Shown here piece by piece: positions 1 through 13,916 of a stretch of DNA of 13,916 nucleotides (position 1 is its first letter; every line of letters starts with the position of its first letter). A model generated the notes under the pieces. That model ran no database searches and was not told the DNA's origin. It saw only the letters and a program-made list of their open reading frames with translations. The translations under genes were made by a program, and so were the position numbers. The stretch lies in assembly GCA_043803745.1 (NCBI GenBank), contig JAZDJS010000024.1:1-13916 (forward strand), given 5' to 3'. This DNA comes from an archaeon (GTDB lineage: Archaea > SpSt-1190 > DYHY01).

Positions 1-73
1 GTCCGAGGCGCACGAAGTGGGCCGGGTGGCCGAACATCAGTGAGGTCCGAGGCGCACGAAGTGGGCCGGGTGG
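1..73. repeat. 29-bp exact direct repeat (1-29 and 45-73, period 44 bp) including the last 12 nt of tRNA-Lys
   Basis: GTCCGAGGCGCACGAAGTGGGCCGGGTGG occurs at 1-29 and 45-73. Positions 62-73 are the tRNA 3' end. The first copy is cut by the window edge. Confidence 0.9.
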
Positions 74-136
74 GATTCGAACCCACGACCTAAAGATTAA
101 GAGTCTTCCGCTCTGACCATGCTGAGCTACCGGCCC
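62..136 (-). tRNA. tRNA-Lys(CTT), intronless, CCA not encoded
   Basis: The reverse complement folds into a cloverleaf: acceptor GGGCCGG/CCGGCCC plus discriminator A, D stem GCTC/GAGC, anticodon arm GAAGA-CTCTTAA-TCTTT (anticodon CTT), T arm GTGGG-TTCGAAT-CCCAC. Confidence 0.97.
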
Positions 137-3691: not shown

Positions 3692-4430
3692 GGAATTTCT
3701 GGAGGCAGACCTCGGCAATCCCGGCAAACCCGCCCCATCTTTTTTCAAAGTTCTCAAGGGAAAGCCCCCCGTAATTCTCCCTTAAAATCCTTCTTATCAG
3801 GACGTCGTCGTAAACGGAGGAAAAGTCTCGGAGCGCGAAGAGACTGTAGATGCTTTCCGAATATTTCCCGACTCCAGGGAGTCCTTTCGTCAGGCTCCCG
3901 GAGAATCTTTCCGCGCACCCGAGAATGAACTTCTTCCTGTAGCCGACCCCGCAGGAATCAAGTTTGCTTGGCGCGCGCAAAACATCTCTTTGGCTCGGGA
4001 ACCTCCCGCCATATGCGGAATAGACCGAGTAGACCATTTTCTTGTACTGGTCAAAGCCCGTCATTTGCGAAAGGATTATGCAGAAAAGGGCTTCCCAGTT
4101 TGTCGGGGCTGAGAAAAGCCGCAAGCCGCGGATTTCTCCGGAGAAGCCGGAAAGGACCTGGTCCCTGTCGGCAAGTTCGTAGAACTCCGAGAGGTCGTCG
4201 TTTATCCCGAGGCAGCGGGACACAAGGGTTTTCACTTCCCCGGCAATTCCGCTTGGCGCCCCCTCAACCGAAACCGATTTCCCCTTCTGCGAAATCCTGC
4301 AGAGCGCCCGCCCGCCGGAAACCTCTAGAATCCGCGACATCCCGCCGCCGATTTCGAAGAGGAACGGCCTGTTCCTGAGGTTTTTGCCGAGGTCGAAATC
4401 CCCCCGGACCCTTATTTTCAGCCCCGCCAC
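3645..4430 (-). CDS. HhH-GPD DNA glycosylase, AlkA-like
   Basis: GLRL..PTNWEALFCIILSQ, FPS, GVGYRKKFI, HhH motif LPGVG, catalytic Asp region VYDDVLIRRIL and RWGGFAG. GTG start. Confidence 0.85.
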   Translation of the reverse strand: MAGLKIRVRGDFDLGKNLRNRPFLFEIGGGMSRILEVSGGRALCRISQKGKSVSVEGAPSGIAGEVKTLVSRCLGINDDLSEFYELADRDQVLSGFSGEIRGLRLFSAPTNWEALFCIILSQMTGFDQYKKMVYSVYSAYGGRFPSQRDVLRAPSKLDSCGVGYRKKFILGCAERFSGSLTKGLPGVGKYSESIYSLFALRDFSSVYDDVLIRRILRENYGGLSLENFEKRWGGFAGIAEVCLQKFLADTRGSPPAPHPDR

Positions 4431-4454
4431 TCTCCGGACAGTGGAGCAAAACCC

Positions 4455-4464: not shown

Positions 4465-4485
4465 ATGGCGGCTACCGGAACCAAC

Positions 4486-5050: not shown

Positions 5051-5102
5051 GACCACTGAAGAATAGCAATATTTATAAGGAAAAGTACGGCATTGCTTTC
5101 CA
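5051..5102 (+). promoter_or_regulatory. Promoter with a degenerate copy of the orphan-gene upstream motif
   Basis: GACCACT (5051-5057) is 52 nt before the ATG. TTTATAAG at 5072-5079 is 23 nt before ATG 5103. Confidence 0.55.
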
Positions 5103-5957
5103 ATGGCAAAGAAAGACGAAGTAAAGATAGTAAATGTTTCGCTGTTCGAGCCCGATTCAAAAGGCAACAGGCGTGCGCTGAGCGGAGCTGCGAAAGACGC
5201 ATTTGCTGGAGAGAACGTCCTAATTGTATTTTACAAGGGGAGCAGGGATTCCTATGGCTTTGGAGAACCTGCCTTGGGAAACCCGGAAGCGGTTATCGAG
5301 CTTTCCCAAGCATTCGTGGACACTGACAGCCGGATCCACATAAACGGTTTTGTTCTTGACGGAATTCCAAGCGATTTGCCGAAAAGATACGACCTGAAGC
5401 AAGCTGAACTTGATCGGGCTGCGAGAGTTCAGAAGGGATATTCGCTGCTAGAGAAGATTTTCAAGGGAACTACGGAACCCGTTTTTGTAGATTCCACCGG
5501 AACCAAACTAACTGAATTGGCGCCCGGAACCGACATTGCAGACGGCACCCTTGATACGGTAGGCCAGCTTGCCTATCAGCTTGGAAGCCAGTTTCCCAAA
5601 GGAAACCAAGCCCAACTGCACGTTTCCGCGGAAATGCGCAGGGACTGGCAAGGCGAGTCAGACGTTCTTGTAAAACCTCAAAACGACTATTTTCTCGTAA
5701 CGACGAGGGGCCCGGCAACGATTAATTTTTCGCGTGCAAACCCTTATATGATAGAGAAAAGCGTGCCGATTTCCCCAAGAATCCTGAACGTCTGCGTGGA
5801 AGACATCCCTGCTCCAAGCGTTGAACCGAACGCGCCCAAGTTCCTATTGAAAATTCCTGGACTTGGCGGATACATCCAAGGAAGTGCAAACGAAAAAGCG
5901 GACAAGAAGATAGTTGCAGAACTTGTCAGGGACCTCGGATATGCACTCGCGGTCTGA
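5103..5957 (+). CDS. Hypothetical protein, 284 aa; N-terminal half possibly a thioredoxin-like fold without catalytic Cys
   Basis: Long ORF with its own TATA box and visibly more A-rich than neighbours. Weak AhpC/TSA-like segments were seen by eye. Confidence 0.8.
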   Translation: MAKKDEVKIVNVSLFEPDSKGNRRALSGAAKDAFAGENVLIVFYKGSRDSYGFGEPALGNPEAVIELSQAFVDTDSRIHINGFVLDGIPSDLPKRYDLKQAELDRAARVQKGYSLLEKIFKGTTEPVFVDSTGTKLTELAPGTDIADGTLDTVGQLAYQLGSQFPKGNQAQLHVSAEMRRDWQGESDVLVKPQNDYFLVTTRGPATINFSRANPYMIEKSVPISPRILNVCVEDIPAPSVEPNAPKFLLKIPGLGGYIQGSANEKADKKIVAELVRDLGYALAV

Positions 5958-6934: not shown

Positions 6935-8077
6935 TCAGGAAAGATAACTTGCAAGGGTCGGGAGAATGAGGAATGCTACGAGCACGCGCTTGCTCACTCC
7001 CGCCCTTGCCGCAACGAGCGAGATTGCTGCCGAGAAAGCGAAAAGGGATATTCCCGGAAACCCGGAAAGGAGCCCGACAGCAGCCAGGAGGATTGCGAGG
7101 GAGAGTTCGTTGAGGAAGGGAAGCCTTGCAAGCTTTTCCGAAAGCGGGGAAATGCAGAACTTCAGGAAAAATGCGGAAGCGGAGGATGCGACTGCAACAA
7201 GGAGAATCGCGGGGGCAAGCCCCCCGAAGGATGCGAGCCCGGCTTGGGAGAGCGCGGAAATCACGCCGTTCCTTTCAGCCCCGGAGGAAAAGAAAGTCGG
7301 GAGGGAGAAAAGGAAGGCGGAAAATCCGCCGGAAACTGAAAGCGCCAGAAATTCCTCGGTATCGACCCCGCCGAAAAGCCCGGCAAGCGCGGCAACAACA
7401 ACCGAGACAGTCAGGGCGGGAAAGGTCCCGACGAAAAATCCGGCGAGCGTTCCCAGAATGACCGGGAAGAAAAGTTTCCCAATTGGAACCGGAGTTCTCC
7501 TTTCCGGGCGCTTCGCCCGGTCAGCCCCGTTTCCACCCGAAAGAATTGACTCGAGCAGCAGGGACCCGCCGAAGAACCCGGCGAAGACCGGGAAAAGCGA
7601 GTCCGAGGAAATGAAGTTCATTCCGAAGATTCCGGAAGCAAGGAAAACAAGAAACGCCTCGGGAAGCCTTTTCTCGGAGAAGACGAGAAGAACTGAGAAG
7701 AAGACGAGGATTCCGAGGACAAATTCGCGCGGGAATTTCCCCGGCAAGAGGAGGAGCGTTGCCGGAAGCGTTGCAAGGAAGACCGGAAGGGTCAGGAGGA
7801 GGGAATATGCAGAAACCAGGATTGCGCGGGAGCCCTCGCCAGCAAGGAACATCCTGTGCGCGGGAAGGACCGCGGTCTCGCTCCCTTCGGAAGGGACTCC
7901 GGAAAAAACCGAGAGGGGGACGGAGGAGAAATACTGGGCTGAAATCCCGGCAAGGATCCCCGGGACCCCGAGGGGGAGAAGGAGAACCGCAAGGGAGTTC
8001 TGGTGGATTCCGGGAAGGAAAAGCCCGGAGAAAATCCCGGCAAGGAAACCGAGGAAAGCCTGCGCGAGAAATTCCAT
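6935..8077 (-). CDS. Tripartite tricarboxylate transporter TctA family (archaeal DUF112-type) membrane protein
   Basis: GIFSGLFLPGIHQN, LSVFSGVP, AVLPAHRMFLAGEG and a second-half repeat GFFVGTFPALT. Hydrophobic throughout. Confidence 0.85.
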   Translation of the reverse strand: MEFLAQAFLGFLAGIFSGLFLPGIHQNSLAVLLLPLGVPGILAGISAQYFSSVPLSVFSGVPSEGSETAVLPAHRMFLAGEGSRAILVSAYSLLLTLPVFLATLPATLLLLPGKFPREFVLGILVFFSVLLVFSEKRLPEAFLVFLASGIFGMNFISSDSLFPVFAGFFGGSLLLESILSGGNGADRAKRPERRTPVPIGKLFFPVILGTLAGFFVGTFPALTVSVVVAALAGLFGGVDTEEFLALSVSGGFSAFLFSLPTFFSSGAERNGVISALSQAGLASFGGLAPAILLVAVASSASAFFLKFCISPLSEKLARLPFLNELSLAILLAAVGLLSGFPGISLFAFSAAISLVAARAGVSKRVLVAFLILPTLASYLS

Positions 8078-8100
8078 TTCGAGCCGAATAAATCCAAGCA

Positions 8101-8120
8101 GAGAATACTTTTAAAGACGG
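8101..8120. promoter_or_regulatory. TATA box for glyS, possibly also serving the divergent tctA
   Basis: TTTTAAAG at 8109-8116, 22 nt before ATG 8139, in a 61-bp divergent spacer. Confidence 0.55.
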
Positions 8121-9660: not shown

Positions 9661-10971
9661 ATGGGACTTTTCGGAACGTCTGGAATAAGGGGAATTTACG
9701 AAACGGAAATAACGGTCGACCTTGCAAGGAAGCTTGGCGCCGCTCTCGCGAAGAGGTACAAGAAGATTGTCATTGCGCGGGACCACAGGCTCTCGGGGCC
9801 AATCCTTTCCGAAGCCCTCGGGAAGGCTGCCGCAATGATTGGCGCGGAGGCAATTGAAATCGGGATTTGCCCGACCCCCGCAGCAGCTTTCGCGGGGAAG
9901 ACGCTCGGGGCCGACTGCGTCGTGGTCGTCACCGCAAGCCACAACCCGCCGGCCTACAACGGATTCAAGTTCTTCAACCCCGACGGCTCCGCTTTCTCGA
10001 GAATCCAGGAAGCGGAATTGGCGAAGCTGATTGAATATGCGCCGGTGGTCTCCGGGAGAATCAAGACCTCGGAAATTTCCAAGTTCTCGCATAACGACGC
10101 AATACTGAAGGAATTCGCCGGACAATTCGCCGGAATGAAGGTTGTCCTCAACTGCAACGGCGGGGCTGCGACCGCAACGGCTCCCGCGCTTTTCGAGAAA
10201 CTGGGCTGCATCGTATACCCGATTTTCGACAAGCCCGACGGGGAATATGTGCCGAACCCGAAGACGAAGCCTGACTCGACGCTCGGAGACTGGAACAGGA
10301 TTGCCGACGTTGACACAACCGAGCGCGCCGTTGCCGACAGGGGGGCCGATGTCGGGATCATCTATGACGGGGATGCTGACAGGCTTCTTGCAATCGCCCC
10401 TAACGGCGCCGTTGCGCCGGACAAGCTTCTCTACCTTTTCTGTGCGCAGTTCTACCCTGGCGCCAACGTCGTCGATGTCGTTGACGGCTCGTCAATCCTC
10501 GACTCGGTATGCAACGTCACAAGGGTTCCTGTCGGGGATGTAAACGTTTCCCACAGGCTCAAGGGGGAGGGCAACTTTTCCTTCGGCGGGGAAAGCTGCA
10601 GCGGAGTCTACATCTGGCCGAGCCTGCACTACTGTCCGGACGGGATCTATTCATCTGTGAAGCTCCTCCAGATGGTCAGGGAGAAGGGCTCTCTTGACGC
10701 GCTTTGCGCGCAGGTTCCGGAGAATTTCATAAAACGGGAGAAGGTTTCCGTCCCGAACGAGTTCAAGCTCCAGCTTCTTGAGCATGCCCGGGAGAAAATG
10801 GAGCCGGGATGGAAGATAAACGATTCGGACGGCATAAGGGTCGATTTTCCCGGAAGCTGGTTCCTGCTGAGGCCTTCCGGAACCGAGCCCCTGATGCGGA
10901 TTACCGTCGAGGCTGAAACGGAAGAAAAGGCGCTTGCGCTTTTGGACAAGGCACGGAAACTCCTGGAATGA
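9661..10971 (+). CDS. glmM: Alpha-D-phosphohexomutase (phosphoglucosamine mutase/PMM-PGM family)
   Basis: LFGTSGIRG, TASHNP, DGDADR, GGE and RPSGTEP. The GlmM assignment rests on nearby glmU; substrate specificity is not provable from motifs. Confidence 0.85.
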   Translation: MGLFGTSGIRGIYETEITVDLARKLGAALAKRYKKIVIARDHRLSGPILSEALGKAAAMIGAEAIEIGICPTPAAAFAGKTLGADCVVVVTASHNPPAYNGFKFFNPDGSAFSRIQEAELAKLIEYAPVVSGRIKTSEISKFSHNDAILKEFAGQFAGMKVVLNCNGGAATATAPALFEKLGCIVYPIFDKPDGEYVPNPKTKPDSTLGDWNRIADVDTTERAVADRGADVGIIYDGDADRLLAIAPNGAVAPDKLLYLFCAQFYPGANVVDVVDGSSILDSVCNVTRVPVGDVNVSHRLKGEGNFSFGGESCSGVYIWPSLHYCPDGIYSSVKLLQMVREKGSLDALCAQVPENFIKREKVSVPNEFKLQLLEHAREKMEPGWKINDSDGIRVDFPGSWFLLRPSGTEPLMRITVEAETEEKALALLDKARKLLE

Positions 10972-10978
10972 TTTCCAA

Positions 10979-11012
10979 GAATGACCACTTTGAAGGGATA
11001 AATATATAAAGG
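10979..11012 (+). promoter_or_regulatory. Conserved upstream element plus TATA box, copy 1
   Basis: GAATGACCACTTTGAAGGGATAAATATATAAAGG. TATATAAA ends 21 nt before ATG 11032. Identity to copy 3 is 30/34. Confidence 0.85.
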
Positions 11013-11031
11013 CGGAAGGAAATAGGCAAGC

Positions 11032-11436
11032 ATGAGTGACCTGATACTTCCCGATCCGAGAGAAGAAGCGGCAAGAAAATATCTAGAGGTTGGTGGCGAG
11101 ACAGCTCTCAATCCAATAGGAGAAACTTTAAACGATTATCTTGGGAGTTTCGGAATCTGCTCATCTGACGCCCAGACAATAGCGGATGGGCATTCGCAAA
11201 TCGACAAAAAATATCCGGTTTCGGTCGTAGTGGAGTTAACCAAAAGAGCGGATCAGAAGAGATGCGAGGATTCCACGCTTGCCCCGTGGGGCGCCCTCAC
11301 ATTGGATGAAAAACTCAAAGAGACAATGGCTTCCTATCTTCTTTTGGACGCATATGCCGCGAAGCAAAGGCACAAGGCAAATGCATCCGCAAAAAGCCCG
11401 CCTGCATATAGCGAAGTGGCCACTTTGAAGGGTTAA
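11032..11436 (+). CDS. Hypothetical protein, 134 aa
   Basis: ORF directly downstream of a clear TATA box. No recognisable motif. The stop codon lies inside motif copy 2. Confidence 0.7.
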   Translation: MSDLILPDPREEAARKYLEVGGETALNPIGETLNDYLGSFGICSSDAQTIADGHSQIDKKYPVSVVVELTKRADQKRCEDSTLAPWGALTLDEKLKETMASYLLLDAYAAKQRHKANASAKSPPAYSEVATLKG

Positions 11437-11447
11437 ACTTTTAAATC
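11414..11447 (+). promoter_or_regulatory. Conserved upstream element plus TATA box, copy 2
   Basis: AAGTGGCCACTTTGAAGGGTTAAACTTTTAAATC, containing the perfect palindrome AAGTGGCCACTT. TTTTAAAT ends 20 nt before ATG 11467. Confidence 0.8.
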
Positions 11448-11466
11448 CGGACGGAACGTCCCCGGA

Positions 11467-11928
11467 ATGGGAAACCTGAAGAATCTTTTGCGGACTGCAA
11501 ACCCGTTTTCCGGAGTTGACGAGGAATATATCTGGGGACTCCTTGATGAATTCGGCCTCGGGGCTGCGGTAAAGAAATATGAACTGGAATCCGGGGCGAT
11601 TGCCGGCGCGGGCGAAAGCAAAGGGCTTGATATCAGTTTCCCGAAAGCAATCGAGGTCAGATCAATACACCCGGAAAGCACCGGATTAACTGACGGAGAG
11701 TTCTACAATTTTGTGACAGTCAGAATTCCGGTTCCGGTAGAAGCCTCTTTCGCCCGAAGGGATTTCGGCTCGGCGGTCGTCCTTAAAGAGGAACACCCCG
11801 GTGAAAGATACGGAAAATTCCTGAAAGTGACAAGTGCGTATCCTGAGGTGCCGTTCGCAAACATTCCCGCAAAAGCCGATTTCAGGGAAGCTGTCGAATA
11901 TGCAAGGGACTTGCTGAGCTCGGAATGA
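11467..11928 (+). CDS. Hypothetical protein, 153 aa; probable paralogue of the next ORF
   Basis: Own promoter, and colinear similarity with 11925..12395. Confidence 0.78.
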   Translation: MGNLKNLLRTANPFSGVDEEYIWGLLDEFGLGAAVKKYELESGAIAGAGESKGLDISFPKAIEVRSIHPESTGLTDGEFYNFVTVRIPVPVEASFARRDFGSAVVLKEEHPGERYGKFLKVTSAYPEVPFANIPAKADFREAVEYARDLLSSE

Positions 11929-12395
11929 AAGGAGCAAGAGAGAAAATGACCAATCCGGAAAAATCATTCTTCGGCAGAATCAAAGAAGGAGTTTCCAACG
12001 CATTCTCGGATTTGGATGCTGGATATGCACTGCGCGCTGCCGCGCGAGCGGGACTTGAGGAAAGCATGCTCGGATATTTCCGCGCCCAAGAAGGAAATGA
12101 ACGTCTGCCCTTGCCGTTCGAAATCAAGGAAGGCCTAAGCAACCCAGTATATGCCGGAGCAGACTTGGACGATCCCTGCATTTATTTCCACGAACTGACA
12201 GCAAGGTTCCTTGTTCCAAACGGAGCACAAATAGAATCCGAACCTGAGAGAGGGATAAATGTCAGGGAACTTGAGGGAATCAGGTTCGCTGAACTGCAGG
12301 TAACTTATTTCAAGCCGGGCCTTTTCCTCCGCGCCGAAGCGAAGCACCGTTTGAAGGAAAACCTCGCTTACCTCGCGGACAGAGTTCTTGAGTGA
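11925..12395 (+). CDS. Hypothetical protein, 156 aa; probable paralogue of the previous ORF
   Basis: ATGA overlap with the upstream ORF (alternative start 11946). Shares motifs with 11467..11928. Confidence 0.78.
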   Translation: MKGAREKMTNPEKSFFGRIKEGVSNAFSDLDAGYALRAAARAGLEESMLGYFRAQEGNERLPLPFEIKEGLSNPVYAGADLDDPCIYFHELTARFLVPNGAQIESEPERGINVRELEGIRFAELQVTYFKPGLFLRAEAKHRLKENLAYLADRVLE

Positions 12396-12406
12396 CGAAG
12401 GAATCC

Positions 12407-12423
12407 CTAAAATTCTTTAAACC
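12407..12423 (+). promoter_or_regulatory. Putative BRE/TATA promoter of glmU
   Basis: CTAAAATTC followed by TTTAAACC (12416-12423), 20 nt before ATG 12444. The GRCCACT element is absent. Confidence 0.55.
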
Positions 12424-12443
12424 CATCCAACATCCCTAGGGAG

Positions 12444-13733
12444 ATGGCTGCGTCACAGGGAATAAGGACTGCAATAGTCCTTGCGGCAGGGGAGGGCACG
12501 CGCCTCCGGCCAATTACTTTCACCCGTCCGAAGCCGCTTATTCCAATACTTGGTAAGCCTTTCATTTCCCATATCCTTGAGAATCTTTCAAAAGCAGGAA
12601 TACGGCGCGCAATTGTCGTAATTGGCTACCGGGGGGAGGAAATCCGGAAATATCTGGAAGAGAATTCAAAGAAGCTCGGATTGAAAATAGATTTCGTCAC
12701 CCAAGCGCGCGCCCTTGGCACTGGCCATGCTTTCGCAGCAGCGGCCGGGCTTTTGGCAAAGAGCGACGAAAGATTCCTTTGCCTTGCCGGGGACAACTAT
12801 TATTCCGCAGGGGATATTGCGGATTTTGTAAAAAAAGCAGAGAAGGAAGCAGGTTTCCTTGTCGGAGGGATTGATGTCTTAGACCCGGGCAGGTTTGGGA
12901 TTTTTTCTCTTGAGGGCGAGCGCGTCACGAAAGTGATTGAAAAGCCGGCAAACCCGCCCTCGAACACTGCGAACGCGTCGCTCTATCTCTTCGACAAATC
13001 CTGCTTGGACCTGGCAGGGAAGCTTGAGAAATCGCCGCGCGGGGAATATGAGATAACGGACGTCCTGAAAATCCTCGCCGGGAGGAACCTCTTGAACTTC
13101 TCCAGGCTTTCCTACTGGACAGACCTTGGCGCGCCCTGGGACATACTTGACCTTAACGCAAAGCTCCTTTCGGAAATGAAGGGGAAAATCCATTCCGGAG
13201 CTGAAATCGAGCGCGGCGCGCACATCAAGGGCGCGGTTTTAATCGGGAAAGGGACAATTGTCAAGAGCGGCTCCTATATCGAGGGACCGGTCTGGATTGG
13301 CGAGGACTGCTCAATTGGTCCGAACTGCTACATCCGCGCGGGGACGGTCCTCGGGGAAAAGACAGGGGTTGGTCAGGCAGTCGAGATAAAGAACTCGGTT
13401 TTCTTCGGGCACACCAACGTCAAGCACCTCTCTTATGTTGCCGATTCGGTAATTGGAAAGAACTGCAATTTCGGGGCGGGGACAATTACAGCCAATCTCC
13501 GCCATGACAAGGGAAACATCAAAATGGTCCTCAACGGGAAACTCGTCGATTCCGGAAGAAGGAAGCTCGGCGTTGTAATGGGCGACAATTCAAAGACGGG
13601 GATACACTGCTCGGTTTACCCGGGAAGGACAATCGGGCCGAATTCCTGGACCGATTCGGCAAGCCTTGTTGACCGGGATGTCCCGCCCGGGCATTTCCTC
13701 CGAAGGGACGGGACTATTGAGAAGCTTCCCTGA
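12444..13733 (+). CDS. glmU: Bifunctional sugar-1-phosphate nucleotidylyltransferase/acetyltransferase (archaeal GlmU, ST0452-like)
   Basis: LAAGEGTRLRPIT..RPKPL, LGTGHA, EKP, SPRGEYEITD, hexapeptide repeats, HLSYVADSVIG and NFGAGTITANLRHD. Confidence 0.93.
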   Translation: MAASQGIRTAIVLAAGEGTRLRPITFTRPKPLIPILGKPFISHILENLSKAGIRRAIVVIGYRGEEIRKYLEENSKKLGLKIDFVTQARALGTGHAFAAAAGLLAKSDERFLCLAGDNYYSAGDIADFVKKAEKEAGFLVGGIDVLDPGRFGIFSLEGERVTKVIEKPANPPSNTANASLYLFDKSCLDLAGKLEKSPRGEYEITDVLKILAGRNLLNFSRLSYWTDLGAPWDILDLNAKLLSEMKGKIHSGAEIERGAHIKGAVLIGKGTIVKSGSYIEGPVWIGEDCSIGPNCYIRAGTVLGEKTGVGQAVEIKNSVFFGHTNVKHLSYVADSVIGKNCNFGAGTITANLRHDKGNIKMVLNGKLVDSGRRKLGVVMGDNSKTGIHCSVYPGRTIGPNSWTDSASLVDRDVPPGHFLRRDGTIEKLP

Positions 13734-13744
13734 AAAACCAAGGA

Positions 13745-13778
13745 AAATGGCCACTTTCAAGGGATAACTATATAAAGG
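13745..13778 (+). promoter_or_regulatory. Conserved upstream element plus TATA box, copy 3
   Basis: AAATGGCCACTTTCAAGGGATAACTATATAAAGG. TATATAAA ends 23 nt before ATG 13800. Confidence 0.85.
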
Positions 13779-13799
13779 AAAGCGCGCCTTCGCTTCCCA

Positions 13800-13916
13800 A
13801 TGGCCAAAACAACTATTCCAGTACCAAGCGAAGCTGACTCCGTAACACCCACGCCGAGTGAGGGCTCACCACCCAGCGAAAAAGTTTTTCATACTGGATT
13901 TGGACTACTTTTACCC
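13800..13916 (+). CDS. Partial hypothetical protein, truncated by the window end
   Basis: ATG 13800 opens a 39-codon frame to the edge (MAKTTIPVPSEADSVTPTPSEGSPPSEKVFHTGFGLLLP), correctly spaced from the TATA box. It is not in the ORF track. Confidence 0.6.
   Translation, partial: MAKTTIPVPSEADSVTPTPSEGSPPSEKVFHTGFGLLLP

Follow-up and report, generated by a model that had tools for sequence, protein, structure and literature searches.

Gene regulation in the small-genome uncultivated archaea, in which up to half of the genes are without a recognisable family, is to our knowledge almost undescribed. The archaeal activators Ptr2 and TFB-RF1 have their sites upstream of the transcription factor B recognition element (BRE) and the TATA box. 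The same arrangement, an activator site upstream of BRE/TATA, is described for EarA at the fla promoter in the sections of the report drawn on here (PMC5512572). In Sulfolobus, ultraviolet (UV)-inducible promoters require an element A(N)TTTC that directly precedes the BRE, at -39..-44 (PMC5817253), and in the Sulfolobales the non-initiator paralogue Orc1-2 protects this element in footprints and acts through it (PMC6061795). Here we analyse a stretch of archaeal DNA of 13,916 nucleotides (nt), referred to as the window, which is the entire contig C24 of an assembly (G000) of 1.23 Mb in 51 contigs, with 54 % GC and 90 % completeness, and in it a 34-nt promoter module that occurs three times. 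The upstream part of this module, the CCACT box, is probably a lineage-specific transcription-factor site immediately upstream of BRE/TATA that is used throughout the order. In kind the element is an archaeal upstream regulatory site, a known class; its notable parts are its likeness to origin recognition boxes (ORBs) and its link with inserted orphan genes.

All three modules lie on the forward strand. Copy 1 (10979-11012) consists of the CCACT box TGACCACTTTGAAGGG at 10982-10997 and the TATA element TATATAAA from 11003, with an ATG at 11032, 29 nt on; copy 2 (11414-11447) opens with the palindrome AAGTGGCCACTT, continues with TGAAGGGTTAAAC and the TATA element TTTTAAAT, and has its ATG at 11467, 28 nt on; copy 3 (13745-13778) reads TGGCCACTTTCAAGGG plus TATATAAA, with the ATG at 13800, 29 nt on. 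Counted from the G of GRCCACT, these three start codons are 49, 49 and 51 nt away. By hand recount, copies 1 and 3 are identical at 30/34 positions and copies 1 and 2 at 25/34, and a repeat search places the three first among the direct-repeat families of the region (33 nt; 100, 76 and 91 % identity to copy 1). A first-pass annotation of the window had reported the copies, and direct reading, recount and repeat search confirm its coordinates, both identity counts and the distances to the ATG. The perfect dyad that it saw in copy 2 is likewise real: AAGTGGCCACTT is a perfect 12-nt palindrome, with its sole occurrence in the 1.23-Mb assembly here, and the dyad is poor in copy 1 (4/8 pairs). The assembly has three exact copies of the 16-mer TGRCCACTTTSAAGGG, all of them in the window; when up to three mismatches are allowed, the window holds four matches versus 0.48 expected, a count reached by 0/200 shuffles. 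Copy 1 starts 8 nt after the upstream stop codon and copy 3 starts 12 nt after, while in copy 2 the upstream stop codon (11434-11436) falls within the module.

Which part of the module is specific can be read against the ordinary promoters of the genome. An AT-rich peak centred near -28 precedes start codons genome-wide (enriched hexamers TTTAAA, TTATAA and TATAAA), so that the mRNAs are taken to be mostly leaderless, and alignment of 295 promoters on their TATA shows an A-rich BRE at -8..-4 and, on average, no information further upstream. Because of this BRE/TATA profile, and because AAGGGWTAA alone recurs 24 times in the genome, often preceding genes, the 3' half of the module (AAGGGWTAA plus TATA) is read as an ordinary core promoter; on sequence, the specific part is the 5' half only, TGRCCACTTT. 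A TATA-like hexamer counted as a promoter-like site if a start codon with an open frame of 80 codons or more lay 24-35 nt downstream; 613 sites qualified. All 5-mers were tested in their 18-nt stretch at -26..-9 relative to the TATA, with the stretch at -70..-53 as control. CCACT is the second most enriched 5-mer, behind the AT-rich TTAAA, with 23 occurrences against 2.6 expected (p = 1e-14) and three in the control stretch; its reverse complement AGTGG is enriched as well (13 vs 2.6), and so are ACCAC, CACTT and GCCAC. About 4 % of promoters carry the box. As in other archaeal upstream sites, its position is fixed: 23 of the 38 CCACT occurrences within 70 nt upstream of TATAs fall at -22..-14, and most box sites have the start codon 28-30 nt from the TATA. 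Recurrence above chance also holds for the hexamer CCACTT: of its 261 occurrences, 14 (5.4 %) have a correctly spaced TATA downstream, the highest share among 60 hexamers of the same composition, whose mean is 0.84 %.

Alignment of 24 sites gives the consensus TTnTRA-CCACT-nnn-AAA, with T at -3 in 18/24, A at -1 in 15/24 and A at +8, +9 and +10 in 17, 20 and 14 of 24; positions +5..+7 after CCACT are not conserved. The strong version of the box reads TGRCCACTTKSAAGGG, and the box stands about 47-51 nt before the start codon. A position matrix derived from the best copies picks up C21:67427 (TGACCACTTGGAAGGG plus TATA), then C19:46305, C42:6005 and two sites on contig C16. At C21:67427, C19:46305 and C42:6005 a GTG start follows exactly 39 nt after AAGGG, and across the six strongest copies, these and the three in the window, the distance is 39-41 nt. 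The proposal of the first-pass annotation, a dispersed promoter-linked element placed just upstream of BRE/TATA in the manner of activator sites, is thus upheld, the box being enriched at TATA-plus-start sites genome-wide and positionally constrained there. The annotation had also named outcomes that would speak against it (a motif limited to these copies, one equally common before housekeeping genes, or one with no positional constraint), and none was fully borne out: the exact 16-mer is found in the window only, and degenerate copies occur genome-wide and in relatives.

The four nearest relatives all belong to the same order (G001-G004; 84-94 % complete), G001 being of the same genus and G001-G003 of the same family. 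Counts of the pattern RCCACT-N12-18-TWTAWA against the reversed pattern, in which overlapping TATA variants cause some double counts, are 22/4 in G000, 8/0 in G001, 4/0 in G002, 9/0 in G003 and 13/2 in G004, that is, 34 versus 2 in the relatives together; none of 36 more distant genomes has an excess. At the orthologous promoter of a metallophosphoesterase gene, ACCACT in G000 is replaced, in the same place, by GCCACT in G003 and TTCACT in G001. The composite module was not found in the same-genus, same-family and same-order genomes (no 16-mer match with at most one mismatch; 40 relatives searched). Beyond the relatives, a 20-mer has three loci in species-representative genome contigs, an 18-mer five in viral contigs and a 19-mer 42 in metagenome contigs, all of them single matches and followed by a TATA in 0/3, 0/5 and 0/42 cases. 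Judged by this distribution, the short box is older than the composite module, and the 34-nt module is confined to G000 among the collections searched.

Several further box sites differ in strength or orientation from the three modules. A weaker CCACT box in the window, agaCCACTgaagaatag at 5053-5078 (+; CCACT 5053-5057), stands 20 nt upstream of the TATA (TTTATAA) that serves a family-less gene at 5103-5957. The 24 aligned sites include this box and also a near-perfect dyad at 4427-4444, CCACTCTCCGGACAGTGG (CCACT-N8-AGTGG; 16/18 symmetric), which directly precedes the TATA-like TTATTAATAAA of a membrane-protein gene at 4465/4486-4998. The 16-mer recurs with one mismatch, as TGGCCACTTTAAAGGG, in reverse orientation at C48:10038-10053 (-), 18 nt upstream of a TATA; the gene behind it, from C48:10099 (+), encodes a secreted or surface protein of 1617 amino acids (aa). 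Contig ends C44:1-973 and C8:1-962 share a 973-nt segmental duplication of 88.6 % identity that carries a CCACT-box promoter, TTKGCCACTGGCAAAGGG (7-1-7 dyad), a 146-aa open reading frame (ORF) and a 116-aa membrane-like ORF; an insertion-sequence (IS) origin for the box-linked 146-aa gene was considered and dropped, the gene being part of this segmental duplication.

How the box compares with the described systems can now be stated. With activator sites of the EarA type it shares the location immediately upstream of the BRE and presumed recruitment of TFB and the TATA-binding protein (TBP); it differs in sequence and in its target set, which is here much larger and consists mostly of orphans (PMC5512572, sections cited). 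The A(N)TTTC element of the Sulfolobales is, like the box, a short motif directly upstream of the BRE (about -40 to -50) at dispersed promoters with many hypothetical genes, and both elements are conserved only among close relatives, as far as the cited sections of that study go (PMC5817253). The core here, however, is RCCACT rather than ANTTTC, and the positions following CCACT are variable among the 24 sites; the Sulfolobales hexanucleotide is found in one of the three copies, copy 3 having ACTTTC at -45..-40 from the ATG and copies 1 and 2 ACTTTG. Counterparts of ups, ced and tfb3 were not seen in the genome, and only one TFB was found.

The genes behind the modules are orphans. Copy 1 precedes o134 (134 aa; 11032-11436, +), which has no Pfam or PHROG family, a GC content at third codon positions (GC3) of 0.47, and its last 8 codons and stop inside copy 2. 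Copy 2 precedes o153 (153 aa; 11467-11928, +) and, through a 4-nt overlap (ATGA) that makes co-transcription from copy 2 probable, o156 (156 aa; 11925-12395, +). Behind copy 3 the contig ends after 39 codons (o39; 13800-13916, +) of another unrecognisable ORF. The downstream ORFs are thus all without Pfam family, as the annotation had judged by eye. G001-G004 hold no match to o153; in a word-indexed search of 5.8 billion proteins both o153 and o156 returned self only, and a full HMMER scan with o153 gave itself and one marginal match (E 4.6e-4) to a 4620-aa protein. For o156 a lead towards YbjN or chaperone-like folds proved unusable, with ESM Atlas neighbours at template-modelling (TM) scores of at most 0.51 and low-confidence models (predicted local distance difference test, pLDDT, 0.55-0.57). 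Kinship among o134, o153, o156, o39, the 143-aa ORF of C21, the 236-aa ORF of C26 and an ORF from a G001 slot was nowhere significant by blastp, tblastn or phmmer, the best pair, the slot ORFs of G001 and C26, reaching E 0.008 over 21 aa. When all six frames are scored with a codon model derived from the genome, the given frame comes first for o134, o153 and o156, and a reverse frame does so for the 39-codon stub. The orphans have GC3 of 0.47-0.54 versus 0.62-0.71 in the flanking glmM-like and glmU-like genes, and their overall GC is lower too.

Box genes elsewhere in the genome point the same way. Among 23 forward-oriented box promoters, 20 genes were scanned against Pfam (three doubtful ORFs of 81-89 aa were excluded) and compared with 20 random promoter-linked genes matched on length and spacing; 4/20 had a Pfam match as against 10/20 controls, so that 16/20 versus 10/20 are family-less, a contrast that is not significant in a two-sided Fisher test (p 0.096; 0.048 one-sided). 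The 20-gene sample is slightly less independent than its size implies because two of its members (C8, C44) are near-identical paralogues. The four matches are to a metallophosphoesterase, an N6/N4 DNA methylase, a weak PPDK_N and an HMA domain. Median GC3 is 0.536 in box genes versus 0.639 in 539 others (Mann-Whitney p 1e-4), and four genes behind the six strongest boxes, searched in G001-G004, had no match there (o134, o156 and o39 are outside this set). What the annotation had said of orphan genes therefore holds in direction, family-less genes being commoner and GC3 lower, and falls short of significance in the family contrast.

Copy 1, o134, copy 2, o153 and o156 together make up a segment (10972-12443, +) between a glmM-like gene (9661-10971) and a glmU-like gene (12444-13733). 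Since glmM and glmU are adjacent in 3/3 family relatives (G001, with 9 nt from stop to start, G002 and G003; in G004 they are unlinked), the segment is an insertion in the G000 lineage. The comparison of empty with filled sites that the annotation had put forward thus finds glmM-glmU empty in G001-G003 and filled in G000. In G001 and G003 the slot after glmU is taken up by small unrelated ORFs, with a convergent enolase gene next. Contig C26 of G000 begins with the 236-aa orphan ORF and then the enolase, for which reason C24 probably abuts C26, the variable slot probably continuing there. On C21, two conserved genes are 1 kb apart with the copy in between; in G002-G004 the pair has no such gap, and in G001 unrelated DNA takes up the space. 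A repeat search found no inverted termini or target-site duplications flanking 10972-12443, and eight box-linked orphans compared with the viral families of PHROGs gave no match. Separately, G001 carries a 60-80-nt repeat in 10 copies (loci L080-L089, e.g. G001:C7:55894 and C8:71897), mostly at contig ends; it forms part of the 3' end of a multi-copy ORF and is absent from G000 and G002-G004. That it might be an IS was rejected on these features; two of its copies map to, or close to, sites occupied in G000 by strong-box orphans, a hint that the two genomes share insertion hot spots.

From these data a mechanism can be proposed. The three copies would be composite archaeal promoters of leaderless mRNAs, with a generic BRE/TATA at the 3' side and the CCACT box at the 5' side. 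A sequence-specific factor on the box, adjoining TFB and TBP, would set the activity of some 25-35 promoters in G000, more likely through activation by recruitment, with repression as the other option. Its targets would be mainly accessory, family-less genes of low GC3, the strongest boxes standing in variable slots between conserved genes. Sequence, position, enrichment, taxonomic spread and insertion are read from the genomes themselves; that a protein binds the box, and which protein, we infer. Several points weigh against a factor site. The gene and promoter calls are crude heuristics (an ORF plus a TATA), the Pfam contrast stays above the significance level, the relatives' counts are small (4-13 per genome) and the relatives themselves non-independent, and conservation of the metallophosphoesterase promoter is only partial, the promoters in G002 and G004 being different and box-less. 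In addition, copies 1 and 3 share more identity than a factor site needs, reaching into flanking bases as far upstream as CCAAG with a 2-nt indel, and this excess suggests shared descent.

Shared descent is the starting point of a different explanation, which we consider unlikely: a ready-made 34-42-nt promoter was duplicated, or else a single outside source, for example a virus or plasmid of the lineage, supplied it more than once, together with new genes, the likeness of the copies reflecting common descent rather than selection. It is compatible with a factor site. The 30/34 identity of copies 1 and 3 stands out among 188,191 promoter pairs, at the far end of the distribution (besides self-pairs and true repeats, one other pair reaches 30) and continues into the flank; the orphans have been inserted between genes adjacent in all three family relatives, and the C21 slot is empty in G002-G004; the o134 stop lies inside copy 2 as though the next unit had been joined on; orphan GC and GC3 are below those of the neighbours; and the composite module was met in no other genome searched. 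Mobility should leave further traces, and here the segment has neither terminal inverted repeats nor target-site duplications, as an IS or miniature inverted-repeat transposable element (MITE) would, no recombinase- or integrase-like family appeared in the 10 window ORFs taken into the Pfam scan (six further window ORFs lie outside it), no PHROG was matched by the box-linked orphans, the second unit has no module behind it (12396-12443), and the virus, genome and metagenome matches are never followed by a TATA. Integron attC cassettes are small unrelated genes in a row, each with a conserved imperfect palindrome, in a conserved locus. The locus resembles them in its row of small unrelated genes with an imperfect palindrome inserted at a conserved place; it differs in that the repeat is 5' and joined to a TATA, each unit has its own promoter, no repeat follows o156, the same box occurs at resident conserved genes, and no integrase family was seen in the ORFs scanned. 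Because weaker boxes stand at conserved genes and in relatives, the core is best regarded as an ordinary resident cis element. The mobile promoter cassette of the first-pass annotation thus keeps the insertion into conserved synteny in its favour and loses the flanking repeats, the recombination-site architecture and any copy elsewhere.

The remaining explanations fare worse. An extended core promoter, read by the basal machinery through an alternative TFB/TBP or a long BRE without a separate regulator, would account for the tight linkage to TATA at fairly fixed spacing and for the AAGGG block abutting the BRE position. The BRE extends over roughly 7 nt, and CCACT is 14-22 nt upstream of the TATA and so beyond it; AGTGG is enriched too (both orientations, unlike a BRE), some 4 % of promoters carry the box, and a single TFB gene was found (a 310-aa frame with two cyclin repeats; assembly 90 % complete). 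The alternative TFB that the annotation had offered is for these reasons, one TFB gene and a box too far upstream, unsupported, and we regard an extended core as very improbable. Equally improbable is an absence of function, whether by local duplication or as a chance repeat: the exact 16-mer is indeed restricted to one 3-kb stretch, and against this the genes behind the copies are not related to one another, additional copies, on other contigs, keep the same start-codon spacing, the box is enriched genome-wide and in relatives, and no shuffle attains the observed count. That the copies act in RNA, as terminators or processing hairpins at the 3' ends of the upstream genes glmM, o134 and glmU, is hardly credible. 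The copies do lie near or within upstream stop codons and copy 2 has its 12-nt palindrome, yet no stable or shared fold emerged (z -0.39, +0.21 and +0.61 vs shuffles), no Rfam family is present in the region, the run of T measures just 3 nt, no gene in the same orientation precedes the C21 copy, and copy 1 pairs poorly. The preferred reading thus remains that of a factor site upstream of BRE/TATA.

As to which factor binds the CCACT box, one of the two Orc1/Cdc6 paralogues of G000 is tentatively favoured because the box resembles shortened ORBs of the genome and because Orc1-2 of the Sulfolobales offers a precedent at nearly the same position. One paralogue (cdc6-A, on C15 from 20512) is beside an ORB cluster and the other (C21:48894-50048) is not; the Sulfolobales factor Orc1-2 is itself a non-initiator, according to the sections cited (PMC6061795). 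The densest CCACT/AGTGG cluster of the genome, five in 200 nt versus 0.12 expected, lies directly upstream of the C15 paralogue, and the AT-rich stretch with five ORB-like boxes at C15:20300-20511 is a probable replication origin. It contains TTTCCACTGGAAAC, TTTTCCACTGGAACC, CTCCACTCGAAAC, the inverted CTCCACTTCC and a promoter-type AAACCACTTTC; similar clusters, with boxes TTCCA-NN-GGAAA-N-[GC]AAGG(G), are upstream of the orthologues in G001, G003, G004, G005 and G008. These boxes are consistent with the Pyrococcus mini-ORB, which reads TTCCAGTGGAACT and has the core motifs TTCC and GAA (PMC1904270). The window modules share two ORB blocks, CCAC and [GC]AAGGG; taken more widely, the box has in common with ORBs and mini-ORBs a CCAC(T) block, a GAA/AAA block and, in strong copies, the [GC]AAGGG 'G-string', and AAACCACTTTC occurs inside the origin cluster itself. 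AAGG follows within 10 nt after CCAC in 7/23 promoter boxes as against 36/758 CCACT sites genome-wide.

The resemblance is incomplete, and the following speaks against an Orc1/Cdc6 binder. The base before CCAC is A or G in 21/24 promoter boxes (T in 2) and T in ORBs, and the spacer from CCAC to [GC]AAGG is 3-4 nt in the modules versus about 7-8 in ORBs. The ORB centre variants CCAGT and CCACA are not among the enriched promoter 5-mers. Promoter boxes are single, dispersed and fused to a TATA, whereas ORBs form groups, with an AT-rich unwinding region, next to a cdc6/orc1 gene (the true cluster is at C15:20300-20500); the TTCC core of Pyrococcus is unmatched, GAA/AAA being present, and in Pyrococcus single mini-ORBs outside the origin are unbound in vivo, as the cited sections have it (PMC1904270). 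Both Orc1/Cdc6 types are present class-wide, including genomes without box-TATA excess, and as orthologue-level matches occur across the class, a phyletic test on Orc1/Cdc6-B does not discriminate. Cdc6/Orc1, one of several candidates for a DNA pull-down in the first-pass annotation, is accordingly now the best candidate by ORB resemblance, with base and spacer mismatches still standing against it.

A bolder version, which we hold to be rather improbable, is that an Orc1/Cdc6 paralogue has been co-opted as master factor of accessory and orphan genes through shortened, ORB-derived boxes fused to TATA, the modules being copied before newly acquired or newly born genes; such genes would then gain instant co-regulated expression tied to the replication and cell-cycle machinery. 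A link to Orc1/Cdc6, if true, would extend initiator-derived transcription factors well beyond the Sulfolobales, and module copying, if true, would show how orphan genes acquire expression. What is defined here is a cis element with a position rule, about 25 target promoters, a range of one order and two named candidate binders, and the question of the binder is open to recombinant proteins and synthetic DNA, for which culture is unnecessary.

Promoters of high mutual similarity exist elsewhere in the genome. A second family (approximately GATTYAAGCGGAAAGGRTTAAA) is found at C21:48860-48893, C21:88564, C15:42341, C30:14065 and other places; one member stands before the second Orc1/Cdc6 gene, and one pair is 30/34 identical, as are copies 1 and 3. 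At C36:30341 and 31827, 1.5 kb apart, two promoters agree at 34/34 nt, probably through tandem duplication. Within the window, two ORFs of 380 and 382 aa on opposite strands overlap almost fully (6935-8077, -, and 6966-8114, +); the codon model favours the minus strand, and the plus-strand ORF, the only one of the two scanned, has no Pfam match. Finally, a tRNA gene (Rfam RF00005, 74 bits) occupies 62-136 (-).

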